From: Candidatus Saccharimonadota bacterium
GTDB lineage: Bacteria > Patescibacteriota > Patescibacteriia > 2-12-FULL-60-25
NCBI GenBank assembly: GCA_016699205.1
Contig: CP064964.1
Coordinates: 690,001-722,000 of the forward strand
Reading direction: 5' to 3'
DNA: 32,000 nt
The position numbers and the translations under genes are program-made. Under the pieces are notes generated by a model. That model did not search any database, had not been told where the DNA came from, and saw only the letters and a program-made list of their open reading frames with translations. Below, piece by piece: positions 3,001 to 32,000 of this stretch; position 1 is the first letter of the stretch, and each line of letters begins with the position of its first letter.

Positions 3001-4065
3001 GACCAGGTAGGAAATGCCTCTGTTGCAGGTAGTTTGTCAGTTGCAGGTAAGTTTTATCCTTCCTCTAAAGGCGGGGGGCTACAAGATGATTGGTATGTAT
3101 TTGTCGATGATACATCATCGACGGCTGCATATATTTCAACCAATGCAGAAGGTTGGCAGAGTATGGATACGTATGATTTTGCGGAGCGCTATTACTCACC
3201 GGATTCACTTGAGCCGGGTGATGTGGTCATCGTTTCCGATTCAGGACGCATGCATGTACAGCGCTCAATGAACGATAAGGCTATGGTATTGGGTATCGTA
3301 TCGACTCGTCCTGCGTTTATTGCGGGACGTCCGGCAACATCGACATATCCAATCGCGCTTTCTGGCCGTGTACCGACCAAGGTTTCTGGTATGAACGGTG
3401 CTGTTAAGGCAGGTGATCCGTTGGCTCCGACATCGATTCCTGGAGTTGTTGCTAAGGCAATTCATACAGGACCGATCGTTGGTTTGGCCTTGGAAGATTA
3501 CGATCAGACGAATGTCGGTAGTATTGAGGTGTTTGTGAATCCGGGTTGGTGGACCAATCAAGCCGAGACAAATCAGGAAACGATTATCAATAATACGGTT
3601 ATTAATAACGTTACTTCAGGTGTGACGCGTCGCGGTGTCGGTATGATCGTTGCTGGCTCAAAGCGCGTACATATCAGCTTTGACTCGATCGGCGCCTATC
3701 CGTTTGTACAGGTCACACCGCGTGGCTTGATTCAGGGTAATTGGGGTACGGATGGATATAGCGATACGGGTTTCGATATCTTGATGTCAGCTGAACAGAC
3801 ATTCGATGCTTACTTCTCATGGCAGGTGGAGCCGTTACAGGGAAGTGATCGATTGAATTTATCGGACGGCACATCTGCAGACATTGATCCTGTGACGGGT
3901 TTACCTTTTGGTTTTACGACACCAACAACGACGGAATCGATTATTGAGGAGTCTCCGATGACGACTTCGACTGAAGCTTTGTCGGGAAGCGAATCGACCT
4001 CCACTGATTCTGTTACTGGGTCAACAGATTCAGAGGCATCCGCAACATCAAGTGAAGCGATCTAG
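1..4065 (+). CDS. Giant surface/secreted repeat protein, 5'-truncated by the window edge. It has at least 12 LVIVD-type beta-propeller repeats, the conserved C-terminal cassette and a Ser/Thr/Glu-rich tail.
   Basis: The ORF track gives 94..4065, but frame 1 is open from nt 1 (GKQIAVHNGITAIYDGEL...), so the gene enters from upstream. It has recurrent G-x-YAYV...GL-x-I/V-x-DVS-x-P-x-x-P units, e.g. GLVIVDVSNPASPRL at 1636-1680. The last ~600 aa (from ~2260) are paralogous to 10151-11745. Confidence 0.85.
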   Translation, partial: GKQIAVHNGITAIYDGELITSSQLVYNISDPVVPVNIANILAANDVGDLVFKNDYLYQVGATINVYDISSPSSLELVATSTGNAPYAAFLSGGYLYVTRDARLAIYDISDATRLTELGTAQLPCTLCLVGSNQTNGLYVKERYAYMTDIGTDNFYIIDVSDPYSPTHTSYISGFSNPQGVVAEGNYAYMVESGSNELTIINIASSTEPFVARSVPSSQSAPTEVALSGNYLYVGGSTGVAVFDVSSSTNPFLVTTLASGSVQDMQVEGNQLHVGTASAYFIYEMPSITAPAMLVGSVQAGTGLIENDFTIGNQLYVGGGIHAGGSIMARGSISASDIDVSGFGSATAVRTVRVASQSVYAAGDYVYTTNDASTRVHQISIANPEFATNTAAGVLSSASGRDLFVAGGYLYVAQGTNGLAIFSTENATGVLRQISTTTGLGTAHEVFVSGRYAYIAALGTGVEVVDVGNPYTPVLKETFDGSGTNSSQGVYLQDRYLYVGDGADGLRILDASDPVDLRQIGILNTAGSAEKVFVSEGIAYVTDDTNGLVIVDVSNPASPRLLSTVPPISSGNISNVTKAGDYLYVTSDTGLGSVDNFRVFDVSSSTRPVLVWGFNGPGSPAGVDVKGRYAYVGDGELLHVIRLPGVDAPSANIGSLFTGQLNVAEGADIGSYLNVKTGLSVGNGGIQVQGPSTITGSSTDAILRVRNAYNSSTTPYTAWGILVDSIAVSPSFNVPPANRDSWSMYIDYSSSSNRGGLCVDDAITGGGCPISNIGGRSIMTDAGITANAFDLAERYSVSGTAEGGDLLVLETSTSTMVTKHSGTMYDPKLIGIVSLNPGFELGWFNPSSTDVAVALTGRVPTKISMNNGPVQIGDPLTSSDVPGYAMKATKPGMIIGHALQSVSATGTAEVFVAVGYWAGSILATDGTITTIHDDLTITASVSATDLNPTSDSWGLTFRGEAWDASSTSVVASSFTLLTDILSATTSRFSIRSTSGTDLLSIDQVGNASVAGSLSVAGKFYPSSKGGGLQDDWYVFVDDTSSTAAYISTNAEGWQSMDTYDFAERYYSPDSLEPGDVVIVSDSGRMHVQRSMNDKAMVLGIVSTRPAFIAGRPATSTYPIALSGRVPTKVSGMNGAVKAGDPLAPTSIPGVVAKAIHTGPIVGLALEDYDQTNVGSIEVFVNPGWWTNQAETNQETIINNTVINNVTSGVTRRGVGMIVAGSKRVHISFDSIGAYPFVQVTPRGLIQGNWGTDGYSDTGFDILMSAEQTFDAYFSWQVEPLQGSDRLNLSDGTSADIDPVTGLPFGFTTPTTTESIIEESPMTTSTEALSGSESTSTDSVTGSTDSEASATSSEAI

Positions 4066-4241
4066 TCTGGGTAGTTTGAAATTGCGTGTACACAGTTGGA
4101 CACAGGTTATCCACATAGTGAAGATAATATAGGTAACGTAGAAAATTATCGTTTACCTTTTGTTTTAGCTAACTTTCGTCTCATTGATTAATTAATCATA
4201 CAATTGAAGTAGGCTAAGAGTTCACACTTTTGGTCATCGAC

Positions 4242-7200
4242 ATGCCCCGTTCCCTTCGTCCTTTTTTGATCGCTCTCACCCTCCTTCTCGGTGGGTTGTT
4301 TCTGTCTTCCTCGGCTGTCTTGGCTGCTCCTCAAATCAACAATCAGATCAACTATCAAGCTCGCCTCATGGATAGCTCGGGCTTCCCAGTGGCTGATGGA
4401 AACTACTCCGTCTATCTTTCGTTATACGACGCATCGACAGCAGGTACTCGTCTTTGGACAGCGACCGGTACCTTGGCGACTCCAACGCCGCTCACCGTGA
4501 ATGTCCAGAATGGTCTCTTCACCGTTCTTCTTGGCGATACGTCTGCTGCAGGGGGAAGTCAGAACACGCTCGATACCGTGAACTGGAACTCCGACCAGCT
4601 CTACCTTGGCGTCACTATCAACGCTGATGCTGAAATGAGCCCTCGAAAGCGCTTTGCTTCTGCTCCTCAGGCTTTCAATGCCAGACAATTGCAGGGGATG
4701 TATGCCTCGAGTACGGCATCGGGGGGGCAAACACTCTTCACCCTCAATCAAACCCAGAACGATGCCGCTACGGGAACCCGTTCCACTCTCGATGTTCGAT
4801 CCAATGGAACCTCTAACTCCAATGACTTCTTGATTCGAGGCATCAATGATGCAAACGCGGTCGTCTTTTCCATCAATCGCCAAGGATCAGTCACGTCTAC
4901 CAATGTTTTTGTCAGTGGCCTGACAAGTTCCACCAACCTGAACGCCAACATCGCTTCCTTTGCGACCGCAACCGTTGCCGGACAGGGGATTTGTCTCTCC
5001 AATGGACTGTTCTGTTCCACGGGATCAGTCGCTGAAGCCGATACGCTTCAGACCGTATCCAATCGCGGAAGCTTTACCACCACCACCCTTACCTTGTTTG
5101 GCGGGCTTACAGCTTCCAACATCACAGCGACGGGTACTCTTAACGTGACGGGAGTCTCTACTCTTGCTGGAGTTACGTTTACGAATGCGACGGCGACAAG
5201 CGTTACAAGTACCAATGTGTTTGGTGTAAATGGTGCCTTTACAAATCTGACAGTGGATAGTCTGGGTGTCGTTGGCATCACATGGACGAACGCGACAGGT
5301 ACGAACACCACTTCAACAAATCTTTTTGCTTCGAATCTTTTGTTTTCGAATGCCGCTGGTGGAACACTGCTTGCGACGACGGTTTCTACAACCAACCTTA
5401 CTGTTACCGGTCAGCTCGTCTGTTTGGCTGATGGAACGAATTGTCCGTCAGGAACCTCGCCGAATCTCCAGACGGTGACGAATGCCGGCAATACGACCAC
5501 CAACGCGATCCAGTTTGCTGGAGGCACCTCGACGGGAAGCTTTGTTTTTAATGCGACCGCGACCGTCAGCGGAACGCTTGTCTCATTGTCGGTTACTACA
5601 ACTGATCTTTTCGCGAATAACGCTTTTTTTGCAACAGCAACCGTTTCCGGTCAGGCCGTTTGTCTTGCAAATGGTGTTGGTTGTCCAATCGGTACCGTGC
5701 TTAACGATACGCTTCAATCTGTCACGGCTCGCGGTTCCTTTACGACCACCACCGCCCAGTTCTTTGGCGGGTTTGTGGCTGCAAGCTCGAGTGTGACGGG
5801 GACGTTGAATGTTGCGGGAAGCGCTAACCTGCTTCAGAACGCCTATGTTGGTACTTCTACATATTCTGGAGGTCTAAACTCGCTGTTTGCTGCAGACGGC
5901 AATGATTTATTTGTTGCAGGAAGCATTGGTTCGGTTTCATCGATCTATACGAATGGGTCGTTTGTCGCCGGTAGCTCGTCAACTATCTATGCCGATGGTT
6001 CAATTACAAAGACAAACGGAATACTTGAAATTCAAGCTTTTAGCTCGCTTACAGGAGATTATGGTGATCTAGGTTTGCGAGCTGGCGATGGGATCGTTGG
6101 TTTAGAGGATGGTGGCGCTGCATTTATGACGGCTGGCGACGGCGCTTCTGGTGGTGATGGTGGTTGGGCGCAGGTTTTTGCTGGAAATAGCGGTACATCG
6201 AGCGGTGATCTCGCGGGAACGGCCGCCTTGGTAGGTGGCAGCGGTGTTGGTCTTGGTGATGGCGGAGATGTGTTGCTTCAATCTGGCGGTGCAAATAATG
6301 GTGTTGCAGGGGACATTCAGCTTAATGCTGGAAGTGATAGTACTGGCTTTGATCAATCAGGGTCTATCTATCTTCGCCCGGGCATTTCTTCTGCTGCCAG
6401 TTCCTTGAATGATGCTGCTACGTTTGTGATGATTCAAGATGCAAATAATACAGACATCACGGCACAGTTGCGTTTTGGTGAGCTTGCAGGTTCTAACGAT
6501 GATTTTGTTGGTTTTAGAGCTGCAAATACTCTTGCATCAAGTACGATTTGGATTCTGCCGCAGTTTACCGGTGCATCCGGTACTGTGATTGCGACGGATG
6601 GAAATAATCAACTCTATTTCTCAAGCGTCTGTCTCACGGATGGCACCAATTGTCCGGCTTCTTCTGGCCTCGACACCCTCCAATCGGTCACGGCTCGCGG
6701 CAGCTTCACGACCACTACGGCCCAGTTCTTTGGTGGATTCGTCGCAGCTTCATCCTCGGTCACAGGTACCTTTGTCGTCGTCGGTTCTACCTCGCTCCGC
6801 AATGTCGACTTCACAACGGCTACCGGTACTTCGGTCACCACGACTAACCTCTTTGCGACATTGGGTGGCTTTACGACCGCTACGGCAACCAATGCGAATA
6901 TCAACATTCTCTCTGCGGCAACCGGTACGGTTTCTAACCTCAACTTCCGCAATGCGACTGGTACGTTCCTGTTTGCCTCAACAGGTACGTTCGCAACAGT
7001 CACTTCATCGTTCTTGTATGCCAATACGGCTAACTTTGCCACAGCTACCGTTTCCGGTGTCGGTATCTGTTTGAGCAATGGCGTTGGCTGTCCGGCAAGC
7101 GGTTCCTCTAATGACACCCTCCAGTCGGTCACCGCACGCGGCAGCTTCACGACTACCACGGCCCAGTTCTTTGGCGGCTTTGTGGCAGCTTCCTCTTCTG

Positions 7201-10200
7201 TCACAGGAACCTTTGCTGTTGCCGGAACAAGCACCCTTTTGCGCGATGTCTATGTCGGTACCTCTACCTACGATGTTTTCCTGAACTCCGACTTTGTCCT
7301 CGATGGCAATGATCTGTTTGCCGCCGACAATATTGGTTCGGTTTCCTCGATCTTCTCCAATGGCATGCTTGTTACCGGAGAAACCGGTCCTACCTTGTTT
7401 GGAGACGGATTCATCAATCAGACCGATGGCGCGCTCGTTATTTCGGCTGACAGCGCATTCCTGACCCAGCCTTCCATCAGCATTATCGCCGGTGATGTTA
7501 CTTCTGGTCTTGCCGGTGACGTGAATATCCTGGCTGGCAACGGTCTTGGCGGAAACCCAGCTGGAAATATCTATCTCACGCCTGGTGACTCCCTTGGACA
7601 GCCGGGACATCTCTATCTCAATGCTGCAGGCACTTCCAATCAACCGCAATTCCGCTTTGAATCCATCGGTGGAGGCATGGTGAGCTTAGAGGCTCCGAAT
7701 ACCGCTAACACCGAGAACTTTGTCCTTCCATTTGCGGATGGCGCTTCTTCTACCGTCATTGGTACCAATGGCTTCGGAGGTCTCACCTTTGTCTCTGTTT
7801 GTTTGACGGATGGCACCAACTGTCCGGCTTCTTCTGGTGTAGCTGACCTTAACTGGACCTTCAACCTCGCTGGAGATTTTGCGCGAAACGCGACTGCAAC
7901 GACCGATATCGCTATCGGCTCTTCTACCCTAGGCAATGCTCCGTTTGTTTTCCTTAACAATACAACCACTTCACGCTTCCTGATCGGTCAGAACTCCTCG
8001 ACCGGAGCCGGAGCTGATCTCGTGATTGGGGCCACGACGGCTAGCGGCATGAACACCGCCTTCCAGCTCACGGGCGATGATCTCTTTGTGGCTGGCAATA
8101 TCGGGTCTGCTTCCAGCGTGTATACCAATGGCGCTTTTATTGCTGGACCTGGATCGACCCATTACGGCAATGGTTATATCAACAAGAATGATGGATCGCT
8201 GACGCTCTCAGCAAGCCTTGGTATTGTTGCTTCAAGTCGCCTTGATGCTCGCTATCTAAATCGCTGGTTTCTTTCGCCGCTCTTGAAGACGGCTGTGAAT
8301 GGCGGCAAGAGTGTTCGTGTTCCTGTCGGTAACTCTCCTACAAACGCTGCTTTTGATGGCAGCCATATGTGGGTTGTGAATGCTGCTTCTAACAACGTTT
8401 CCAAGATTGATATTACGACCAATACCGTTGTTGCGACGACGACGGTTGGAACAAATCCTGTTGATATTGCTTTTGACGGTACGTACATGTGGGTGGTCAA
8501 CCAATCTTTTGGCAACGTTTCCAAGATTGATATTACGACCAATACCGTTGTTGCGACGACGACGGTAGGAGCAGGTCCTAATGCTGTTGCCTTTGATGGA
8601 ACACACATGTGGGTAGCTAACACAGGCTCTAACAACGTTTCCAAGATTGATATTACGACCAATACCGTTGTTGCGACGACGACGGTTGGAACAGGTCCTA
8701 GCGGCATTGCGTTTGATGGCACCCATATGTGGGTTGCTAATACTACTTCCGCTAATGCTAACAAGATTGAGATCGTAAGTAATACCGTTGTTGCGACGAC
8801 GACGGTAGGAACTGGTGCTTTAGGTATCGCGTTTGATGGCAGCCATATGTGGGTTGCGAATCAAACACAAGATACCATCTCTAAAATTGATATCACGGCT
8901 AATACCGTTGTTGCGACGATGACTGGAACGTCTCCTAATAGTCTCGCGTTTGATGGCACCCATATGTGGGTGACGAAGGGTATCGCAGCTGATGTTATAA
9001 AGATTGATGTTAATACCAACGCTGCTGTTGTCGTTACATCAACAAATGGAGTAGCTGCAAACGGCATTGCGTTTGATGGCACCCATATGTGGGTGACGAA
9101 CGGTGGTAACAATAATGTCATCAAGCTTCCTGTTGGTGGTGGGAATGGAGCAGATATGAACTTTGGCGTGAACCTCGTTCCTACGTCAAATGACACTTTC
9201 GATCTTGGTACGTCTGCGCTTGAATTTAGAAATGGTTTCTTTAGCGGAACCGTCTCTACGACCAATGTTACCGTCGGAGGATTCAATGTTTGTCTCTCTA
9301 ACGGTACGAATTGTCCAGCTTCAGGTACAGAGACGCTGCTTACGGTGTCGAATCGAGGCGCATTAGCGACAAGTACTCTTACGCTCTTTGGCGGGTTTGT
9401 AGCCGCAAGCTCAAGCGTAACCGGGACGTTGAGTGTGGGAGGGGCGCTCAATGTGACAGGAACCGTGAATATCTTGTTACCATCGACTTCAACGCCATTT
9501 TATATTGACGCTCCTGCTCCAACCGATTTTGAACTGTCACAGTTATTGTCGATTTCTACGACGGGATCGGAAGGATTTTTAATCGGTAATTTCAATCTCT
9601 TTGGTTCGGTTAATGCTACGCTGTTAAATTTTACGAAAGATTTGAATGATCCGGTCAATGCTGCCGGTTCGAGAATCTCCTATTATAACGAGTTCAATCA
9701 GATGTCTTTTGGAGTGAATGCCTCTGGTTCAAACGCAACGGTCTTAGAGTTAACTGATAATGATGCCATGTTAAACGGCTTCGGAGCGGAAGCAGCCATG
9801 ACGATCCGTAAATATACGGATACAAGAACGTCCTCGATGATTCATTTGTGGAACTTGGGTTCAAATTCCGGAGAAGTCACGGTTAATGTTGGTTCTAGTG
9901 ATCCAAATGATGTCGTGAATGCACAAATTGGAAGTATTTATTTCCGTCAAAACAGTACCGCTTCCGGCACGCAGGCTTATCTCAATAAGGGGTCGGCGAC
10001 AAGTTGGTATGGCATCGCAACATTAGACATGCTTCCTTCGTCATCGACATTCTCACAAACGCGGACATTCCTCGCGAACCGCACCACGAGCACCCTTGCT
10101 GAACCAAGTAATTTTACGATGACGATCGGTTACTCTTCTGCCACGACTTTTGGAGGTTTGTGTATCGATGATACGTTTAGCGGTACAGGCTGTCCTACGA

Positions 10201-10889
10201 CAAATATTAATGGGGCTTCGATTATGGCGGACGGACCCATCTTGGCAAATGCGTTTGATATTGCTGAATTTTATTCCGTTACAGGTACGGCTGATGCGGG
10301 GGACGTGCTTGTTCTTGATGCATCAAGCACAGCTACTGTTAAGCAGAGCGGCGGTGTTGCCTATGATTCCAAGGTCATCGGTGTTGTCTCTACCGCTCCG
10401 GGATTTGTTCTAGGCTGGTCTGGTGGAACGCGCGTTGCCCTTGCTGGTCGAGTGCCAGTAAAAGTTTCGATGAACAATGGACCGATTCAAGTTGGGGACG
10501 CATTGGTTTCATCGGATGTTCCTGGATATGCCATGAAGGCCACGCGGCCAGGAATGGTGCTTGGCTATGCGCTGGAAAGCGCGTCTGCGACCGGAACGGC
10601 TGAGTTGTTTGTTAATGTAGGTTATTGGGCTGGCATGGCTCTTGCGTCAGATGGATCGATACAGGTTGATGATAGCGGTAATGTATCTGTGATGAATGAT
10701 CTTCATGTTGGAGGAAGATTGTTTCCGAGTTTGCGAGGAGGGGGAATACAAAATCAGTGGTATTTGTTTGTGAATGCCGATGATCCTACCTCGACTTATA
10801 TTTCCACAAATGCCGATGGTTTCCAGAGCATGGATACCTATGACTTTGCCGAACGTTATTATTCACCGGATGAGCTTGGAACCAGGTGA
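4242..10889 (+). CDS. Giant secreted fibre/propeller protein, main part. It is interrupted by a 1-nt frameshift at ~10872 and continues in 10873..11745.
   Basis: ATG at 4242 (the ORF track starts at an upstream TTG, 4230). Signal peptide MPRSLRPFLIALTLLLGGLFLSSSAVLA/AP. T/S/N/G-rich segments are punctuated 7 times by C-L-x-x-G-x-x-C-P. Seven 40-aa blades (consensus core FDG[ST][HY]MWV, flanked by N-V-S-K-I-D-I-T-T-N-T-V-V-A in the central blades) lie at 8310-9140. The C-terminal cassette homologous to 2260-4065 starts at ~10151. Confidence 0.85.
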   Translation: MPRSLRPFLIALTLLLGGLFLSSSAVLAAPQINNQINYQARLMDSSGFPVADGNYSVYLSLYDASTAGTRLWTATGTLATPTPLTVNVQNGLFTVLLGDTSAAGGSQNTLDTVNWNSDQLYLGVTINADAEMSPRKRFASAPQAFNARQLQGMYASSTASGGQTLFTLNQTQNDAATGTRSTLDVRSNGTSNSNDFLIRGINDANAVVFSINRQGSVTSTNVFVSGLTSSTNLNANIASFATATVAGQGICLSNGLFCSTGSVAEADTLQTVSNRGSFTTTTLTLFGGLTASNITATGTLNVTGVSTLAGVTFTNATATSVTSTNVFGVNGAFTNLTVDSLGVVGITWTNATGTNTTSTNLFASNLLFSNAAGGTLLATTVSTTNLTVTGQLVCLADGTNCPSGTSPNLQTVTNAGNTTTNAIQFAGGTSTGSFVFNATATVSGTLVSLSVTTTDLFANNAFFATATVSGQAVCLANGVGCPIGTVLNDTLQSVTARGSFTTTTAQFFGGFVAASSSVTGTLNVAGSANLLQNAYVGTSTYSGGLNSLFAADGNDLFVAGSIGSVSSIYTNGSFVAGSSSTIYADGSITKTNGILEIQAFSSLTGDYGDLGLRAGDGIVGLEDGGAAFMTAGDGASGGDGGWAQVFAGNSGTSSGDLAGTAALVGGSGVGLGDGGDVLLQSGGANNGVAGDIQLNAGSDSTGFDQSGSIYLRPGISSAASSLNDAATFVMIQDANNTDITAQLRFGELAGSNDDFVGFRAANTLASSTIWILPQFTGASGTVIATDGNNQLYFSSVCLTDGTNCPASSGLDTLQSVTARGSFTTTTAQFFGGFVAASSSVTGTFVVVGSTSLRNVDFTTATGTSVTTTNLFATLGGFTTATATNANINILSAATGTVSNLNFRNATGTFLFASTGTFATVTSSFLYANTANFATATVSGVGICLSNGVGCPASGSSNDTLQSVTARGSFTTTTAQFFGGFVAASSSVTGTFAVAGTSTLLRDVYVGTSTYDVFLNSDFVLDGNDLFAADNIGSVSSIFSNGMLVTGETGPTLFGDGFINQTDGALVISADSAFLTQPSISIIAGDVTSGLAGDVNILAGNGLGGNPAGNIYLTPGDSLGQPGHLYLNAAGTSNQPQFRFESIGGGMVSLEAPNTANTENFVLPFADGASSTVIGTNGFGGLTFVSVCLTDGTNCPASSGVADLNWTFNLAGDFARNATATTDIAIGSSTLGNAPFVFLNNTTTSRFLIGQNSSTGAGADLVIGATTASGMNTAFQLTGDDLFVAGNIGSASSVYTNGAFIAGPGSTHYGNGYINKNDGSLTLSASLGIVASSRLDARYLNRWFLSPLLKTAVNGGKSVRVPVGNSPTNAAFDGSHMWVVNAASNNVSKIDITTNTVVATTTVGTNPVDIAFDGTYMWVVNQSFGNVSKIDITTNTVVATTTVGAGPNAVAFDGTHMWVANTGSNNVSKIDITTNTVVATTTVGTGPSGIAFDGTHMWVANTTSANANKIEIVSNTVVATTTVGTGALGIAFDGSHMWVANQTQDTISKIDITANTVVATMTGTSPNSLAFDGTHMWVTKGIAADVIKIDVNTNAAVVVTSTNGVAANGIAFDGTHMWVTNGGNNNVIKLPVGGGNGADMNFGVNLVPTSNDTFDLGTSALEFRNGFFSGTVSTTNVTVGGFNVCLSNGTNCPASGTETLLTVSNRGALATSTLTLFGGFVAASSSVTGTLSVGGALNVTGTVNILLPSTSTPFYIDAPAPTDFELSQLLSISTTGSEGFLIGNFNLFGSVNATLLNFTKDLNDPVNAAGSRISYYNEFNQMSFGVNASGSNATVLELTDNDAMLNGFGAEAAMTIRKYTDTRTSSMIHLWNLGSNSGEVTVNVGSSDPNDVVNAQIGSIYFRQNSTASGTQAYLNKGSATSWYGIATLDMLPSSSTFSQTRTFLANRTTSTLAEPSNFTMTIGYSSATTFGGLCIDDTFSGTGCPTTNINGASIMADGPILANAFDIAEFYSVTGTADAGDVLVLDASSTATVKQSGGVAYDSKVIGVVSTAPGFVLGWSGGTRVALAGRVPVKVSMNNGPIQVGDALVSSDVPGYAMKATRPGMVLGYALESASATGTAELFVNVGYWAGMALASDGSIQVDDSGNVSVMNDLHVGGRLFPSLRGGGIQNQWYLFVNADDPTSTYISTNADGFQSMDTYDFAERYYSPDELGTR
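8394..8806 (+). repeat. In-frame 120-bp-period tandem repeat (propeller blades) with a perfectly identical 53-bp core
   Basis: aacgtttccaagattgatattacgaccaataccgttgttgcgacgacgacggt occurs identically at 8394-8446, 8514-8566 and 8634-8686. A 26-bp sub-core (aataccgttgttgcgacgacgacggt) recurs at 8781-8806, with a degenerate copy at ~8901. Confidence 0.95.
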
Positions 10890-11745: not shown

Positions 11746-11826
11746 CTGCGTGAGCGTGCTATACTTGTTGAACATTATGCACATGCGTATTACACGTGTG
11801 TTATACTCCAATCCAAATAGCACATT

Positions 11827-15086: not shown

Positions 15087-15170
15087 GGATTGACGGAAGG
15101 AGCGCGTTTTGGCATTATTTTCCTGCTCCTGGGCCCGTATCGTTATCACGATCCGGTCCCTCGTCACTCG

Positions 15171-15208: not shown

Positions 15209-15284
15209 GGGCCCTTAGCTCAGCTGGTAGAGCGCTTCCATGGCATGGAAGAGGTCAACGGTTCGATCCCGTTAGGGTCCACCA
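15209..15284 (+). tRNA. tRNA-Ala (anticodon GGC), CCA encoded
   Basis: Hand-folded cloverleaf. The acceptor GGGCCCT/AGGGTCC contains the G3:U70 alanine identity pair. D arm GCTC-AGCTGGTA-GAGC. Anticodon arm CTTCC-ATGGCAT-GGAAG (U33, GGC, A37). T arm AACGG-TTCGATC-CCGTT. Discriminator A followed by CCA. Confidence 0.93.
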
Positions 15285-20549: not shown

Positions 20550-20890
20550 TCGATACAGGATGAAGAGGTCGGGCGGGCAATCAGGCGTTTTTCGTCGATT
20601 GGTTTGCCGCAGTATTTACAGATGCCGTATTTACCGGCTTCGATGGCTTTTAAGGCTTTGATGGTGTCGTTTAGTTCATCTTCCAACTTTTCACCAAGCG
20701 AGATTTCATCAGCGAGAGTGGTGACTTCCGAGGCATTGTCGTCATCGGAGTTGCCGCCAGATTCCGGGAAATCAGGGGTTTTTGGATTTTTTGAGTCTGG
20801 ATGAAAACCCATTTCTTTTAAGTCTTGCTCAAGACGAGTCTTGGCCTCCATCAGCTGTGTTTTGATCTCCTCGAGAGTCGCGGCATTCAT
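20519..20890 (-). CDS. DksA/TraR-family C4 zinc-finger protein
   Basis: A C-terminal CKYCGKPIDEKRLIARPTSSSCIECK follows a coiled-coil region. The likely start is the ATG at 20890 (MNAATLEE...) rather than the ORF-track start at 20938. The gene overlaps the lspA start by 31 nt. Confidence 0.8.
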   Translation of the reverse strand: MNAATLEEIKTQLMEAKTRLEQDLKEMGFHPDSKNPKTPDFPESGGNSDDDNASEVTTLADEISLGEKLEDELNDTIKALKAIEAGKYGICKYCGKPIDEKRLIARPTSSSCIECKKTLTQEI

Positions 20891-20980
20891 ATGGGAACAG
20901 TCTAGCAAAAATAGAGAAAAACGTAAAGAAAAAGGCACTTTTATGAAACTTTATTAATAATCGTCAATTATTTTAGGAAT

Positions 20981-21507
20981 TTTAAAAGGACCGCAGTGGC
21001 ACCCTTAATGCATAAGCAATGTGGTGATGCGGTCCTTGGACCGTGATTCGCAGGTCGTTCCCGCGGCGTAAGGAGCTCGGAGAGCTCAACTTATTTGTCG
21101 CAGCAAGTCTGACACAGCATGTGGATCTCGGTCCGGAGACTACTCCCTCTACCTGGTCCTGGCAGAGCCCTAGATGCACCGAAGTGCAAAAAATTAAGGT
21201 TGCCGATAAAGGACATTTGATTTGGTTTTTGATTTCCATGAGCCACGAAGTGGCCGATGGACCAAGTGGAGGAATGGAATCGACATTCGTACGAGACGAA
21301 GGTCGGTCCTGAGGGTAGTTTGAAGGTGCGAGGTTTTAACTGACGCTGATGGGAGTGGTTACCCTGGTGATCATCCGCATTTGGCGGAATCCGTAAAAAG
21401 AAAGAGCGAAACCGGATCGCGACGAGGCGTTTAGCCTGGATGTGACGTTCCGGTAAAAGAACGGGAAAGAGAAGGTGCGAGACTCGCGGTGAGTCACTAC
21501 TAGTATA
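20981..21507 (-). ncRNA. Candidate ~515-nt structured noncoding RNA of unknown class. Strand assignment is probable, not proven.
   Basis: It lies in a 708-bp gap (20939-21645) with no credible ORF. An extended -10, TGGTATACT, sits at 21502-21510 on the - strand. Many hairpins are present, including a cUUCGg tetraloop on the - strand at 21175-21188. A long terminal hairpin (20988-21035) is followed by TTTT. I found no match to RNase P, tmRNA, SRP or 6S signatures. Confidence 0.45.
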
Positions 21508-21645
21508 CCACAAAGGCGGAATAATTCTTGTGCTGGGGAAGAAATGTAAAATTTCTTATAAAAATGCAGCTTTTTTTGCTTGAATCGGGTTTGATTTTGG
21601 ATGGGGATTTATCCTTCAAACTGTGTATTGCTTGTGGATAACCTA

Positions 21646-22797
21646 TTATTCGAAGCAAATTGCGAGGCGGCCGTTCTGGGAGAAGGCTTGAAGACTCGGT
21701 AGAGAGATTCCGAGCATGTCGTGCAAGGCGTTTTTAGAGAGTCGGAGCCATGGATAGCCCATGCTGCAGGGCGCAACATTGCTTTGATCCAAGGTGGTGC
21801 TCGCGTTGGATACGAGAATGAACCGCGGAGAAAGATCGATCCATTGGCCGCGGTCATTTTGTCTGCGTCCAAACAGATCGGTGCTGGTTGAGGCGGTTGG
21901 GAGGAGGCGTTCGTAGGAGACGGTTCCGTCAGGGAGGGTGAGGGCGCGGCGTTCTGTTACGCCCATGAGTCCGAGGACGCGAGCGGCGAGCTCTTGATCG
22001 AGAGGATCGCTGAAGCCGATGTATCGACCTTCGATGAGACGGTCTTTATCAAGCCAGACGGCATAGCGTTCAATAGGCGGGAGGGGTTTCCATTGGCTGC
22101 GGTCGGGTAAATTGGCGGCATCAAGAAAAAGATCGCCGGGGAGCGTGTCCCAAGCAACTCGTCCGAGAGATAGGGCGATGTCACCGGCGGGTAGCGGCGT
22201 TGTTTGCGGGGGAAGGGTAAGATCGCTATCGAAACCACGTCCATTCCAGCGGAAAAGGATTTTGGTCGAGGTTGAGGCGACTTCCAAGCCGAGCCATTTC
22301 TCGATAGCTGAGCTCTCTACTTCCATGACTGGCTGCTTGGCGAGACCGCGCCAGGAGAGGGCGCTTGAGTAGCGGAAGGTCTTGGTTTCATTTCCGATTT
22401 CTCCATTTCTTGCGACGAGTCCGGCTGTGTATCGTTGATTGCTTTTACGATCGAGCCAACGAGGTTGTATGGTGAAAGCAGCGCCTGAAGTTGTGATACC
22501 GCAGATAATTGGCCAGTCGGAATCGCTGGAGAGAGCGTCTTGGCAGATGGCAGGGATTTTCTCTTGAAAAGCTGCAGGGAGCATCTGTTTGGATGCTTTA
22601 GGTGAAATGACGCCGATGATGGCTGTATCGATAGGGATCGGAATAGGTCTGGAAAGCAGGTACCACATGCCTCCAAAAAAGAGGGCGAGTCCGAGCAGGA
22701 TACCGAGTGCCGAGAGATTCCAGAAATTCCAACGACGGCCATGGCCTTCTGCCATGATGATATTGCTTTCGCGATTCAGGATGATTTCTACGGACAT
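21646..22797 (-). CDS. Hypothetical protein with a single N-terminal transmembrane anchor (383 aa)
   Basis: A long ORF with one hydrophobic segment, WNLSALGILLGLALFFGGMWYLL. No recognised domain. An alternative start is at 22755. Confidence 0.55.
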   Translation of the reverse strand: MSVEIILNRESNIIMAEGHGRRWNFWNLSALGILLGLALFFGGMWYLLSRPIPIPIDTAIIGVISPKASKQMLPAAFQEKIPAICQDALSSDSDWPIICGITTSGAAFTIQPRWLDRKSNQRYTAGLVARNGEIGNETKTFRYSSALSWRGLAKQPVMEVESSAIEKWLGLEVASTSTKILFRWNGRGFDSDLTLPPQTTPLPAGDIALSLGRVAWDTLPGDLFLDAANLPDRSQWKPLPPIERYAVWLDKDRLIEGRYIGFSDPLDQELAARVLGLMGVTERRALTLPDGTVSYERLLPTASTSTDLFGRRQNDRGQWIDLSPRFILVSNASTTLDQSNVAPCSMGYPWLRLSKNALHDMLGISLPSLQAFSQNGRLAICFE

Positions 22798-27240: not shown

Positions 27241-27274
27241 TTGAGAGAAAACAGTAAGGTTTAGTCCTATATAT

Positions 27275-30223
27275 ATGTCTAAACGTCCCGTTCACGAGAT
27301 TGAAAAGAAATGGCAGGAGCGCTGGGAACAAGACGGCGTTTATCGAGCTGATGATACGGGTAAGGCCGAGAAGTTTTACGGGCTTATCGAGTTTCCGTAC
27401 CCGTCCGGTGAGGGATTGCATGTAGGTCATCCGCGCTCCTATACGGCTATTGATGCAGTAACCAGAAAACAGCGAATGTTGGGCAAAAATGTTCTTTATC
27501 CGATTGGTTGGGATGCTTTTGGATTACCGACGGAAAATTTTGCCATCAAGAACAAGATCAAGCCGCAGGAGGCGACCAAGAAGAATATCGGTAACTTTAC
27601 TCGCCAGCTGAAGTCGATTGGTTTTGGATTTGATTGGTCTCGCGAGGTCGATACAACGGATCCGAAATACTACAAATGGACACAGTGGCAGTTTTTGAAG
27701 TTTTTCAATTCTTTTTACGATGAGGTTGAGCAGCGTGCGCGTCCTATCGAGGAATTGCCGCCGCATTTGAATAAGGACGAACATCGCATGGCTTTCAAGA
27801 TGGCATCGACTATCAACTGGTGCCCGCGCTGCAAGATCGGCTTGGCCAATGAAGAGGCCCAAGGGGGAGTTTGCGAGCGTTGCGGGAATCCGGTCGAGAA
27901 ACGCGAGAAGGCGCAGTGGATGATTCGCATTACAAAATATGCGGAACGTCTCTTGAAAGATTTGGATACGGTCGACTACTTGGAGAAAATTAAAGCGCAG
28001 CAGATTAATTGGATTGGGAAGAGTGAAGGAGCGTATGTAGATTTTAATATTTCTGGCTCCAAAAATCCATTCGATAAGGTTACGGTGTTCACGACGCGCC
28101 CCGATACATTGTTTGGTGCGACGTATTTGGTGATGGCACCGGAGCATCCACTGGTTGCGACGTGGTTGAAGGAGGGGGATATAAAGAATCAAGATGAGGT
28201 TCAGGCATATCAATCAACAACGGCAGGCAAAAGCGAGATGGAGCGTACAGCAGAGGGCAAGGAAAAAACTGGATGTGTACTCAAGGGAATCGAGGCGGTG
28301 AACCCGGCAAATGGGGAGAAAATTTCCATTTGGATTTCCGATTATGTGTTGGCCGGATATGGAACCGGAGCGATCATGGCCGTGCCGGCGCATGATGAAC
28401 GTGATCATGAGTTCGCTAAAAAGTTTGGATTGCCGATCAAGTATGTCGTAGCGCCTATCGTGGTTGATAAGGAAAATGCGCATCGTGAAGGAAAGAAGAC
28501 TGTGACACGACCGACCGTTCACGCGGTTATTCGAAATCCAAGAACCGGTGAAATTCTTTGCATGCGCTGGAAGCATCGTCCGGTAACAACATTTGTGATT
28601 GGCGGAATGGAAGCGGGTGAGGATTTAATCGAGGCGGCAAAACGAGAAGTGAAAGAAGAGACCGGTTATACGGATTTGAAATTCGTCGGCGTTCTTGGCG
28701 GACCAATGCGTGCCGATTATTTTGCTGGGCACAAAGATGAAAATCGTATCGCTTATGTCACGGCTGTGATGTTTGACTTGGTAAGCGATGACAAGGGGGT
28801 TGTGCCATCGTCGGAAACAGATACGCATGAGCCGGTTTGGATCCCGCTCGACAAGATCTCAGCTGAGCCTTTGCCGCCATTGGAACGCGACTATCTCTTG
28901 CCGCGCATCAAGGATGAAAATGCTTCACTTTTTTCTGGTGAGGGAGAGGCGATCAACTCCGGTTTCCTCGATGGATTACCGACATGGAAGGCAAAAGATG
29001 ACATGACTTCTTGGCTTAATGAACAGAAGAAAGGCCAGAAAGCGATAACCTACAAATTGCGTGATTGGGTGTTTTCTCGCCAGCGTTATTGGGGTGAGCC
29101 GATTCCGATCGTGATCTGTAAAAAGTGCGGCTATGTTCCGGTTCCAGAAAAAGAGCTGCCGTTGATGCTGCCGGATGTCGAGGCATATGAGCCGTCTGAT
29201 TCTGGCGAGTCACCGCTTGCGGCTATTCGTGATTGGGTTGAGGTTGATTGTCCATCGTGCGGAGAAAAGGCTGAACGTGAAACCGATACGATGCCTAACT
29301 GGGCTGGTTCCAGTTGGTACTTTTTGCGCTATTGCGATCCGCATAATGATACGGAGTTCGCATCGGCAGAGAAGTTGAAATATTGGATGCCGGTGAATTT
29401 GTACAACGGCGGCATGGAGCATACGACGCTTCACCTGTTGTATTCCCGATTCTGGTACAAGTTTTTGTGGGATTTGAGAGTTATTCCGGAAGAGTGTGGA
29501 AGCGAGCCGTATGCCAAGCGTCGATCGCATGGACTGATTCTTGCGCAAGGCGGGGAGAAGATGTCCAAGTCCAAAGGGAATGTGGTGAATCCGGATGATG
29601 TTGTCGGTGAATACGGCGCCGATGTGTTCCGTGTGTACGAAATGTTCATGGGGCCTTTTGATCAGCCGGTACCTTGGGATACGAATGGTATTGAAGGCGT
29701 ACGTAAATTCCTCGAGAAAGTCTGGGGTTTATTGGTTGAGGGTAAATCTATCGAGGCGAGTGATGAGCTAGAAACGATTTATCATCAGAGTGTAAAGAAA
29801 GTCACCGATGGAATCGATCAATTGCATTTCAACACCTGTGTTTCGCAGATGATGATTTTGACGAATGCTTTTGCGGATGCGGGCGGTGTACCGGTATCGA
29901 TGAAGCATGGCTATCTGCAGATCCTCGCTCCGTTTGCGCCGCATATGACGGAGGAGCTTTGGTCGATTATGGGGGAGAAGGGATCGATTCATCGATCTGG
30001 TTGGCCGGCTTATGATTCTTCCAAATTAACGGCTGCTACTTTTGAACTTGTTGTTCAAGTGAATGGTAAGGTGCGCGGTAAGATCATCGTTGATTCATCT
30101 ATTGATGAAGCTGGAGCCAAGGCTGCGGCATTATCGGATGAGAATGTGAAGAAGTATTTGGAAGGTAAAGAACCTAAGCAGGTGAGATATATTGCCGGTA
30201 AATTGTTAAGTATTGTTGTATGA
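27275..30223 (+). CDS. leuS: Leucyl-tRNA synthetase carrying an inserted Nudix hydrolase domain (982 aa)
   Basis: HIGH motif (GLHVGHPRSY), KMSKS (GEKMSKSKGN), CP1 editing-domain end AVPAHDERDHEFAKKFGLPI, and YKLRDWVFSRQRYWGEPIPIV. About 160 extra residues lie between LPIKYVV and GEAINSGFLDGL. They include a perfect Nudix box, GGMEAGEDLIEAAKREVKEETGY (28601-28669). Confidence 0.93.
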   Translation: MSKRPVHEIEKKWQERWEQDGVYRADDTGKAEKFYGLIEFPYPSGEGLHVGHPRSYTAIDAVTRKQRMLGKNVLYPIGWDAFGLPTENFAIKNKIKPQEATKKNIGNFTRQLKSIGFGFDWSREVDTTDPKYYKWTQWQFLKFFNSFYDEVEQRARPIEELPPHLNKDEHRMAFKMASTINWCPRCKIGLANEEAQGGVCERCGNPVEKREKAQWMIRITKYAERLLKDLDTVDYLEKIKAQQINWIGKSEGAYVDFNISGSKNPFDKVTVFTTRPDTLFGATYLVMAPEHPLVATWLKEGDIKNQDEVQAYQSTTAGKSEMERTAEGKEKTGCVLKGIEAVNPANGEKISIWISDYVLAGYGTGAIMAVPAHDERDHEFAKKFGLPIKYVVAPIVVDKENAHREGKKTVTRPTVHAVIRNPRTGEILCMRWKHRPVTTFVIGGMEAGEDLIEAAKREVKEETGYTDLKFVGVLGGPMRADYFAGHKDENRIAYVTAVMFDLVSDDKGVVPSSETDTHEPVWIPLDKISAEPLPPLERDYLLPRIKDENASLFSGEGEAINSGFLDGLPTWKAKDDMTSWLNEQKKGQKAITYKLRDWVFSRQRYWGEPIPIVICKKCGYVPVPEKELPLMLPDVEAYEPSDSGESPLAAIRDWVEVDCPSCGEKAERETDTMPNWAGSSWYFLRYCDPHNDTEFASAEKLKYWMPVNLYNGGMEHTTLHLLYSRFWYKFLWDLRVIPEECGSEPYAKRRSHGLILAQGGEKMSKSKGNVVNPDDVVGEYGADVFRVYEMFMGPFDQPVPWDTNGIEGVRKFLEKVWGLLVEGKSIEASDELETIYHQSVKKVTDGIDQLHFNTCVSQMMILTNAFADAGGVPVSMKHGYLQILAPFAPHMTEELWSIMGEKGSIHRSGWPAYDSSKLTAATFELVVQVNGKVRGKIIVDSSIDEAGAKAAALSDENVKKYLEGKEPKQVRYIAGKLLSIVV

Positions 30224-31100: not shown

Positions 31101-32000
31101 ATGAATCACAAAATCAAAAAGCTCATTGCCGTCGTGGCGCTTGTCGCTCTTTCCGGCCAAGGCTGCACCAGAGCGCCTTCTGCCGATGCTGTCCGCGCGT
31201 CACAGCCAGTGACTTTGAAGGTCTGGGGAGTTGTTGATGATGTTGATGTCTATCAGGATTTGCTGGCGGCTTATCGTGTGACGCATCCGAATGTTCAGGT
31301 CGAGTATCGCCGTTTTCGCTTGGAAGAATATAAAGATCAATTGTTGAATGCCCTAGCAGAGGATCGCGGACCTGATGTCTTTTTGATTCATAACACATGG
31401 ACGAGCGAGTATCTGACAAAGATTGTTCCGATGCCGCGCACCACGAGAACCGCCTATCGCACCGTTACGGGAACTATTAAGAAGGAGCTGACATGGGAAT
31501 TGCGTACAGAGCCGACGCTCGCGCTTATCGATTTCAAGAATCAGTACGCCGATGTCGTTCAGCATGATTTACTGCGTACGATTGATGTTTCCACGGATAC
31601 CAACGTGAAGGACTTTCAAGAGAAGATCATGGGCGTACCAGTTGGTGTTGATACGATGGCTCTCTACTACAATAAGGATTTGTTGAATGCGGCCGGTATT
31701 CCGACGCCGCCGGAGAACTGGGCCCAATTTTCTGATCAGGTGAAGCGATTGACCAAGCTCGACAGCCAGGGAAATGTTACGCAATCGGCGGCGGGTATTG
31801 GTACAGCAAACAATGTCGAGCGGGCAACCGACTTGGTGTCTTTGCTCATGATCCAGAATGGTCAGACGATGGAGGATGATGCGGGCTATCCGATTTTCCA
31901 TAAGATTCCTGCGGCATTGAGCCGTGATAATCCGCCTTCCTTTCAAGCGCTGGAGTTTTATACGGACTTCGCTAACCCTAATAAGGACGTTTATACCTGG
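31101..32000 (+). CDS. ABC-transporter extracellular solute-binding lipoprotein (family-1/sugar type), 3'-truncated by the window edge
   Basis: This gene is not in the ORF track because no stop is reached. My own translation from ATG 31101 is open for 300 codons: MNHKIKKLIAVVALVALSGQGCTRAP... (signal peptide plus Cys) ...LKVWGVVDDVDVYQDLLAAYRVTHPNVQVEY...GVDTMALYYNKDLLNAAGIPTPPENW. That pattern is typical of SBP_bac_1 proteins. Confidence 0.75.
   Translation, partial: MNHKIKKLIAVVALVALSGQGCTRAPSADAVRASQPVTLKVWGVVDDVDVYQDLLAAYRVTHPNVQVEYRRFRLEEYKDQLLNALAEDRGPDVFLIHNTWTSEYLTKIVPMPRTTRTAYRTVTGTIKKELTWELRTEPTLALIDFKNQYADVVQHDLLRTIDVSTDTNVKDFQEKIMGVPVGVDTMALYYNKDLLNAAGIPTPPENWAQFSDQVKRLTKLDSQGNVTQSAAGIGTANNVERATDLVSLLMIQNGQTMEDDAGYPIFHKIPAALSRDNPPSFQALEFYTDFANPNKDVYTW

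Follow-up and report, generated by a model that had tools for sequence, protein, structure and literature searches.

A conserved, structured RNA locus upstream of a dksA-like gene in Candidatus Uhrbacteria as a candidate new class of large bacterial RNA

Bacterial RNAs that are longer than about 400 nucleotides (nt) and have a dense, tertiary-style architecture are rare: the ribosomal RNAs, RNase P RNA, transfer-messenger RNA (tmRNA), group I and group II introns, and a few orphan classes such as OLE, GOLLD, ROOL and HEARO. Almost all such large RNAs have proved to be ribozymes or the cores of unusual ribonucleoproteins. The Candidate Phyla Radiation (CPR) is a vast branch of the bacterial tree, for the most part uncultured, whose genomes measure about 1 Mb; in these, 0.5 kb of non-coding DNA is expensive. 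We know of no such large RNA described for the CPR. Here we analyze a 32,000-nt stretch of CPR DNA (assembly GCA_016699205.1, contig CP064964.1, positions 690,001 to 722,000; the whole stretch is called the window, and coordinates count from its first letter). Between a membrane protein gene and a dksA-like gene, the window carries a candidate gene for a structured RNA of about 513 nt. A preliminary description made from the sequence had proposed an unclassified structured RNA of ~515 nt on the minus strand at this place; our analysis supports that proposal and suggests a reach beyond the window's own lineage which the description had not foreseen.

Judged by its general features, the closest analogy is with the orphan large RNAs OLE (RF01071), GOLLD, ROOL, HEARO and raiA, and with OLE in particular, and it is a resemblance in kind rather than one of membership. 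Like them, the RNA is about 0.5 kb long, with many conserved nucleotides and with covarying and long-range helices. As with OLE and other orphan RNAs, it came to light through comparative genomics before any function was known, and it is limited to one bacterial lineage in its clearly recognizable form. It also lies beside the gene of a lineage-specific membrane protein, as ole lies beside oapA. However, it has no sequence or structure match to the models of these families, its host belongs to the CPR (Patescibacteria) whereas theirs are Firmicutes or phages, and the neighboring membrane protein is predicted to face outward, bears no resemblance to OapA and has no Pfam domain.

The conserved RNA block and its fold

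The RNA gene runs on the minus strand from about 21496 to 20984 (~513 nt; 31% C and 21% G), within a gap that is free of open reading frames (ORFs) and lies between the genes for a 383-aa hypothetical membrane protein and a DksA-like protein. In relatives, gene calls take the ATG at 20890 as the start of the dksA-like gene, which gives a gap of 755 nt (20891-21645). The preliminary description, which gave it as 20939-21645, was right that it is real and slightly short on its extent. From contigs that encode relatives of the 383-aa protein we obtained about 12 distinct homologues of the RNA, and a metagenome scan with a conserved motif added five further contigs, all with the same synteny. At every homologous locus the order is pnp, 383-aa membrane protein, RNA, dksA-like, lspA, comM, with gaps of ~690-760 nt: the RNA is fixed at this position within one clade of Candidatus Uhrbacteria. 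A pattern scan of viral contigs for the RNA motif gave 0 matches, and blastn searches of phage and plasmid collections with the RNA found none.

Alignments of the homologues show a sharply bounded conserved block. It starts 6-7 nt past a TGnTAyAmT box and ends at a terminal hairpin followed by UUUUAAAUUUCC, by which it runs a few bases beyond the RNA gene, to ~20974, in the ~12 distinct homologues; outside it, the flanking spacer DNA diverges freely. In the window the box is the extended -10 promoter TGGTATACT at 21502-21510 (minus strand), which the preliminary description had picked out and which is conserved in all homologues, at the same fixed distance of 6-7 nt upstream of the block and with diverging sequence further upstream. 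The conserved -10 box and the 3′ hairpin thus coincide with the two edges of the block, and transcription would start at ~21496-21498.

The substitutions within the block follow a common fold. RNAalifold gives 120 pairs, 35 of them with compensatory changes. In a 113-pair consensus on 11 distinct sequences, 98.1% of the cells are paired and 40 of the 113 pairs have changed on both sides, compared with 13.1 ± 2.3 in column shuffles (0/500 shuffles reach 40); when the partners are slid by one to three columns, only 2-4 such pairs are left. Relative to shuffles, the region itself folds with z = -4.07 when read as the minus strand and z = -3.67 when read as the plus strand. Seven near-invariant G·U pairs, which would give A·C mismatches on the opposite strand, fix the orientation as the minus strand together with the promoter, the terminal U-run and two C(UUCG)G loops. 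This locus is a selected, structured unit that runs from promoter to hairpin. Covariation among relatives had been named beforehand as a way to check the proposal, and it is strong.

The RNA is 76-99% identical to the window in the main clade and 60% identical in the distant clade (locus L099). Its identity exceeds that of the 383-aa, lspA and comM genes at every locus measured, and that of pnp and the dksA-like gene everywhere except in the case of dksA at two loci: L085 (83.1% vs 85.8% for dksA) and L099, a tie (59.7% vs 59.8%). Against locus L088, for example, the RNA is 79% identical, pnp 73%, comM 69%, lspA 65% and the 383-aa gene 61%. Purifying selection on the RNA is stronger than on the neighboring genes for PNPase, ComM, the DksA-like protein and LspA, and the conservation check foreseen in the preliminary description is likewise positive, with the two dksA values as its exceptions.

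Conservation of this degree could in principle reflect coding potential, in a decayed gene or in an unrecognised small-protein gene: ORFs of 85-140 aa exist in the window, and gene callers have predicted ORFs of 69-89 aa in the matching gap of some contigs. The pattern of variation makes this reading wholly implausible. Variable columns are spread over the three codon phases as 99/108/103, as opposed to 208/121/649 in pnp, so there is no codon periodicity; the longest ORF shifts in frame, strand and position between homologues; indels of 1-2 nt that break any frame are scattered across the block; Pfam has no match to three ORFs inside the RNA region; and substitutions are compensatory across helices. 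The absence of codon phase, the shifting ORF and the lack of Pfam matches lead us to reject both the pseudogene and the small-protein explanation, in agreement with the earlier judgement that the ORFs of the gap are not credible.

The fold of the RNA is modular: a 5′ domain of hairpins with three single-stranded copies of a short motif, a central domain built on a long-range helix, an irregular 3′ hairpin and a two-tier terminal hairpin (all on the minus strand). At the 5′ end, helix 1 (21481-21495) is a hairpin of the form GACUC-loop-GAGUC with an invariant stem and a variable loop, and corresponds to a stem noted earlier at 21480-21494. It is followed by repeat 1 (21471-21479) of the motif CGC[A/U]C[C/U]UUC (CGCACCUUC) and a pyrimidine tract, which are unpaired in the consensus, and by a variable long hairpin with a conserved GGC-YAARY-GCC tip (21425-21437). 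A stem that the preliminary description proposed at 21446-21463 is plausible, although relatives do not keep its register cleanly. Repeat 2 (21400-21408) reads CGCUCUUUC in the window and CGCACCUUC in L088, L090, L098 and L099, and is followed by UUUUUA. Next come helix 4 (H4; 21369-21391), a hairpin of GAUUCCGC with GCGGAUGAUC that contains the stem noted earlier at 21374-21388 and in which six of eight pairs change on both sides, and hairpin H5 (21351-21364) with a variable spacer after it. Repeat 3 (21322-21330; CGCACCUUC) is nearly invariant and forms the linker into the central domain. The 11-nt direct repeat CTCGCACCTTC that had been described is indeed present; its core, CGCACCTTC, corresponds to the copies at 21322-21330 and 21471-21479, and the copy at 21400-21408 (CGCTCTTTC) is a third, degenerate one.

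The central domain (21139-21319) is the most conserved part of the RNA. It is closed by the pairing of ACUAC with GUAGU (21315-21319 with 21139-21143). Its first element is hairpin H7 (21276-21309), which covaries and includes the CGAC..UUCGU/ACGAA..GUCG pairing recognized previously at 21281-21305. Helix H8 then joins 21259-21274 with 21144-21159 in 15 long-range pairs, and encloses a UUCG hairpin (H9; 21241-21255), a conserved A-rich single strand of 36 nt (CAUGGAAAUCAAAAACCAAAUCAAAUGUCC...; 21205-21240) and a composite hairpin with the second cUUCGg loop (H10-12; 21161-21204). The cUUCGg hairpin of the preliminary description (21175-21188) is helix 12, with covariation in four of its five pairs. 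The two-tier hairpin it placed at 21235-21261 stands only in its inner stem, GGCCAC/GUGGCU, which covaries; the bases of its outer tier belong to H8. Its 6-bp long-range pairing of 21312-21317 with 21360-21365 fails: it is broken in L088, L092 and L099, and each of its sides is used in a different covarying helix.

The 3′ domain (21038-21134) is a long irregular hairpin made of helices 13-15. At its apex is the variable hairpin GAGCUC-UCC-GAGCUC (21073-21087), which the earlier reading had listed among its stems: it occurs in most relatives, where one compensatory change can be seen by eye, and is deleted in the most distant clade (L099/L100). The RNA ends in a covarying two-tier hairpin (helices 16/17; 20984-21037) followed by UUUU, much as had been predicted at 20988-21035. 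Its outer stem of 10 bp and inner stem of 4 bp are separated by a 1-nt bulge on the 5′ side and an internal loop of 4 nt on the 3′ side, and its loop measures ~24 nt. It resembles an intrinsic terminator and is also a conserved structural module. The hairpin loops of the RNA as a whole include UUCG (twice), CUCGU, CAAAU, UAAAC and some large loops.

A scan for pseudoknots and alternative pairs found no covarying non-nested helix; it returned only AUGGAA with UUCCAU, both of them invariant, and a possible alternative in which repeat 2 pairs with the purine strand of H8.

We built two covariance models, R1 for the central domain and R2 for the 3′ domain; the regions behind them have only 8-9 nt in common. 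R1 scores members of the main clade at 223-239 bits and still reaches 158-159 bits in the distant clade, where the neighboring membrane protein is 39% identical and compensatory changes are found in H6, H8, H9 and H12.

The repeat motif also occurs elsewhere in the window. As the 9-mer CGCWCYTTC it has nine sites in the 32 kb compared with 1.5 expected (0/100 shuffles reach nine), and the six sites outside the RNA (417-425, 672-680, 1938-1946, 15096-15104, 28025-28033 and 31145-31153) have no common context. The idea that the CACCUUC repeats mimic an anti-Shine-Dalgarno sequence was dropped because the genes of the window have no Shine-Dalgarno sequences. These genes, several of which have TATACT-like -10 boxes ~10-25 nt from the start codon (e.g. 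20891-20927, 11797-11826 and 27245-27274), suggest by this spacing that leaderless or near-leaderless mRNAs are common in the organism.

Comparison with known RNA families

Rfam 15 (4227 covariance models) was searched with the whole window at gathering thresholds, and with slices of it at E ≤ 10 on both strands. At gathering thresholds the window contains only a tRNA-Ala (15209-15281), and nothing in the gap. Slices of 1001 nt (20800-21800) and 521 nt (20980-21500) gave zero matches at E ≤ 10, and there was no match inside the RNA at the homologous loci L099, L092 and L087. A confident Rfam match, which according to the preliminary description would have moved the locus to a known family, was thus found neither here nor in the homologues. 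ARAGORN detected no tmRNA or tRNA in the gap.

Searches of the literature on non-coding RNA in the CPR, Uhrbacteria, Saccharibacteria and TM7x found no description of this RNA. The only related report they gave was that of Lui et al. (2021), in which RNase P RNAs of CPR genomes proved so diverged that they score under Rfam thresholds, although they can still be recovered with RF00010 (PMC8172020). Because such diverged RNAs escape the thresholds, we examined the RNase P possibility feature by feature. The wider question is whether the RNA is an extremely diverged housekeeping RNA, be it RNase P RNA, tmRNA, signal recognition particle (SRP) RNA or a 6S/Ms1-like binder of RNA polymerase. It is conserved at a housekeeping level, RNase P RNAs below threshold are documented in the CPR (PMC8172020), the adjacent DksA-like protein is of a kind that binds RNA polymerase, which is a weak contextual hint to a 6S-like role, and our search for canonical RNAs covered the 32-kb window alone. 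We nevertheless regard this as improbable. No Rfam model matches the 521-nt slice at E ≤ 10 on either strand, and the features that define each of these RNAs are absent, as the preliminary description had concluded.

RNase P RNA, including the diverged CPR forms (PMC8172020), is similar in outward features: it is of a similar size class (350-500 nt), has housekeeping-level conservation and has its own promoter-to-terminator gene. The RNA described here is C-rich rather than G-rich and has no RF00010 match at E ≤ 10. Its 5′ end is a local hairpin (21481-21495) and its 3′ end is a local two-tier hairpin (20986-21037); since the two ends do not pair with each other, there is no P1 helix, and no covarying pairing of the ends was found. 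The RNase P consensus has a P4 pseudoknot with the universally conserved sequences CR-I (GAGGAAAGUCC) and CR-V (ACAGAA...GGCUUA). The P4 strands are absent here, and so are CR-I (GGAAAGUCC, GAGGAAAGUCC) and CR-V (ACAGAA..GGCUUA). The stretch nearest to these motifs, CAUGGAAAUCAAAAACC, lacks a conserved complementary partner, and the more distant loci L003 and L001 described below do not conserve it.

The other housekeeping RNAs fit no better. A tmRNA would have a tRNA-like domain and a 3′ CCA, neither of which is present, and ARAGORN and the Rfam tmRNA models, including those of the permuted forms, have no match; the A-rich stretch contains 1-nt indels, and the UAA of the window is CAA in half of the relatives, so that it holds no conserved tag frame or stop codon. 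For SRP RNA, the GNRA-capped helix-8 hairpin is missing and the Rfam SRP models do not match. 6S and Ms1 are likewise stand-alone, presumably abundant structured RNAs, and the gene described here lies beside that of an RNA polymerase-binding factor (DksA-like), but this RNA is 2-3 times longer than 6S, is divided into several domains with three-way junctions and unpaired ends instead of forming a rod with a central bubble, and has no match to the Rfam 6S models. Short likenesses to the 3′ end of 16S rRNA and to a tmRNA 'GGAUUCGAC' motif were also considered; they have no statistical support, the tmRNA motif is on the wrong strand, and both were set aside.

Sponge RNAs such as CsrB and RsmZ also display short single-stranded motifs between hairpins, as this RNA does with its three CGCACCUUC-like copies. 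Here, however, the motif is pyrimidine-rich rather than GGA, it has only three copies, and the RNA has a large, rigid, covarying core, which sponge RNAs lack. We know of no CsrA-like partner in this lineage.

Transcription unit and flanking DNA

The gap belongs to a long run of minus-strand genes: rpsO, a NYN-domain protein, PNPase (25031-22875), the 383-aa hypothetical membrane protein (22797-21646), the gap with the RNA, the DksA/TraR-type zinc-finger protein, LspA, ComM and a LysM-M23 peptidase. Lying directly upstream of the dksA-like, lspA and comM genes and on their strand, the RNA might be a cis-acting leader or attenuator, that is, a long structured 5′ untranslated region whose terminal hairpin is a regulated terminator for these genes. 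The terminal U-run, of three to four U, is short, and the 3′ region of the Parcubacteria locus L003 can fold into two mutually exclusive hairpins. Moreover, at locus L081 (GCA_021413945.1, Candidatus Uhrbacteria; 5610-5645) a deletion of ~290 nt joins the 5′ two-thirds of the RNA to the dksA start codon, so that dksA would there be read from the RNA promoter. This deletion, by which the RNA loses the 3′ strands of its central helices along with its 3′ domain and terminal hairpin, and dksA loses its -35 box, is either a natural loss-of-function allele or a misassembly.

The leader interpretation is nonetheless an unlikely one. A second promoter, TTTACG-17 nt-TAGACT (20899-20927, minus strand), read directly and conserved in relatives, separates the RNA from dksA and stops just 8 nt short of the ATG at 20890. 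With its own promoter at that distance, the dksA-like gene would have a separate and nearly leaderless transcript, and the RNA would therefore be a transcription unit of its own. The spacer between the 3′ hairpin of the RNA and this promoter varies in length and sequence among relatives, and in the Saccharibacteria locus L001 an additional strong terminator and a dksA promoter of its own follow the putative RNA. At 513 nt and with more than 110 covarying or conserved pairs, the RNA is far larger than known attenuators. No Rfam riboswitch, T-box or other cis-regulatory model matches it, and the scan for pseudoknots and alternative pairs showed no conserved anti-terminator pairing.

The upstream end of the gap contains a perfect DnaA-box consensus, TTATCCACA, at 21633-21641, beside a box-like CAATACACA, and both are conserved across the syntenic loci. 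We therefore also considered a DNA-level element, such as a replication origin or DnaA-binding region, whose conservation would reflect protein-DNA contacts. There is very little to recommend it as an explanation of the conserved block: the boxes are ~120 nt upstream of the block and outside it, the 32 kb contain just two perfect boxes and show no switch in GC skew, and compensatory changes of pairs together with conserved G·U pairs are a signature of RNA and not of DNA binding.

As sites in their own right, the TTATCCACA/CAATACACA pair (21622-21641, minus strand) begins 5 nt past the stop codon that ends the 383-aa gene, with 2 nt between the boxes and 11-nt phasing, and precedes the RNA promoter by ~120 nt. 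It is conserved in nearly all syntenic loci (in L100 at 6152-6172), and DnaA boxes are also present in the Saccharibacteria locus L001 (two boxes, 4102-4125) and in L003 (3716-3724). A second phased array, GTGTACACA-gt-TGGACACA-gg-TTATCCACA, is found at 4085-4115 on the plus strand, between two adjacent and very large plus-strand ORFs of 1323 aa (94-4065) and 2219 aa (4230-10889) that make up a third of the window. With two perfect boxes in 32 kb and no GC-skew switch, these sites are probably not oriC; they may mark sites regulated by DnaA.

Possible homologues in other CPR phyla and the nature of the RNA

We wondered whether the RNA extends beyond the clade in which it is readily aligned. 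Scanning a genome collection with a ComM query returned 80 loci, most of them not CPR; the CPR loci of use were L001 (Saccharibacteria), L003 (Parcubacteria GW2011_GWA2_38_13) and L018 (Moranbacteria). L001 and L003 appear to have the same arrangement of a putative pnp, membrane protein, ORF-free gap (4075-4764 in L001, 3684-4500 in L003), dksA-like, a putative lspA and comM, with the flanking genes assigned from the positions and sizes of the ORFs. Both gaps carry an extended -10 box (TGATATACT in L001 and TGGTATAAT in L003) and fold far better than shuffles, with z = -8.65 in L001 and -7.51 in L003. With filters off, the best R1 match in L003 (3896-4066; 14.3 bits) and the second-best in L001 (4345-4480; 9.7 bits) lie in the gap on the correct strand. 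The best R2 matches come just downstream of them, at 4104-4211 in L003 (18.6 bits, E ~3e-4) and 4579-4647 in L001 (12.6 bits, E ~0.02), and recover the same two-tier terminal hairpin architecture. In L018 the gap is shorter and has no R1 or R2 match.

Read directly, the three lineages share an H8 core, 5′-YUCUYCYACU.../...AGUAGARGR-3′, with compensatory changes at its inner end. Two hairpins, the first of them small, a single strand rich in CAAAAAC, a long irregular hairpin and a two-tier hairpin whose 3′ side has an internal loop of 4 nt are likewise common to all three. We propose to define the family by a long core helix, 5′-UUCYUCYACU.../...AGUAGARGGA-3′, in which a small hairpin, an A-rich single strand and another hairpin are enclosed and after which come a long irregular hairpin and a two-tier terminal hairpin, the whole being located ahead of dksA-like, lspA and comM. 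All full-length Uhrbacteria members have these features (L081 is truncated, and L095 and L098 are cut by contig ends), and L003 and L001 have them weakly, as colinear R1 and R2 matches and as helices read directly. Chance is an unlikely explanation because the matches are colinear, on the right strand and in a syntenic gap that amounts to 3-4% of each locus, and we think that the elements in the gaps of L001 (4230-4700) and L003 (3820-4215) are probably true homologues of the Uhrbacteria RNA. L003 also has a long AT-rich inverted repeat of short tandem units (aaattctaaattctaaatcctaaac ... gtttagaatttagat...gtttagaatttt) between the putative RNA terminator and the dksA-like gene, at 4290-4440.

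On balance, we favor the view that a highly structured non-coding RNA of ~513 nt, from a previously undescribed family, is encoded here by a gene of its own, that it is stable and acts in trans, and that it has divergent homologues at the same locus in other CPR phyla. It would be transcribed constitutively from the minus strand, accumulate as a stable RNA and act in trans as a structured ribonucleoprotein scaffold. A rigid tertiary frame would come from the covarying helices, as in OLE and other large bacterial RNAs, and the exposed CGC[A/U]C[C/U]UUC linkers and the A-rich strand are candidate binding sites for a protein or nucleic-acid partner. The scaffold is our best guess because the motif linkers between hairpins, and the A-rich strand in a rigid three-way junction, look like binding surfaces, though the RNA may be catalytic. 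In other CPR phyla, divergent homologues would occupy the same locus.

Several points weigh against this view. The transcription, the transcript ends and the stability of the RNA are all inferred from sequence. With only three to four U in its 3′ U-run, the efficiency of termination is uncertain, and if the L081 deletion is genuine, that genome at least can do without the RNA. The range of strongly similar members is narrow, with five metagenome pattern matches and a co-located protein family of only 24 clusters among 5.8 billion proteins. The cross-phylum matches are individually weak, and a spurious 12.4-bit match elsewhere in L001 outranks its R1 core match. The adjacent candidate for a partner, the 383-aa protein, is probably not one: the greater part of it is predicted to be extracytoplasmic and no structure was found to match its model, which does not readily suggest an RNA-binding partner.

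Searches of 5.8 billion proteins, one of them with a profile, found only 22-24 relatives of this protein (39-100% identity); its own cluster includes QQR60444.1 of Candidatus Uhrbacteria. Its N-terminal segment is predicted to be a single long helix preceded by basic residues, as would suit a membrane anchor that leaves most of the protein on the outside of the cell. The AlphaFold2 model is of low to medium confidence (pLDDT 64.7), and a Foldseek search of it against the PDB gave no match with E < 0.2. The only contextual hint to a role, and a weak one, is the conserved adjacency to the gene of a DksA-like RNA polymerase-binding factor.

A bolder reading, which we put forward tentatively and consider less probable than the view given above, is that of an ancient, CPR-wide and fast-diverging large RNA fixed beside dksA-like and lspA, of which the Uhrbacteria RNA would be one branch. 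It would have a housekeeping role specific to ultra-small symbionts, as an essential ribonucleoprotein scaffold or a ribozyme, and would have been missed by standard annotation in thousands of genomes.

That an RNA is better conserved than PNPase or ComM in such small genomes implies that its function is important. The covariance models R1 and R2 give a direct means of annotating it. If the matches in Parcubacteria and Saccharibacteria are true homologues, it would be a marker RNA for the whole radiation and could be studied in the few cultivable Saccharibacteria. We regard it as a good candidate for a class of large bacterial RNA that is new and may be much more widespread than the window's own clade.

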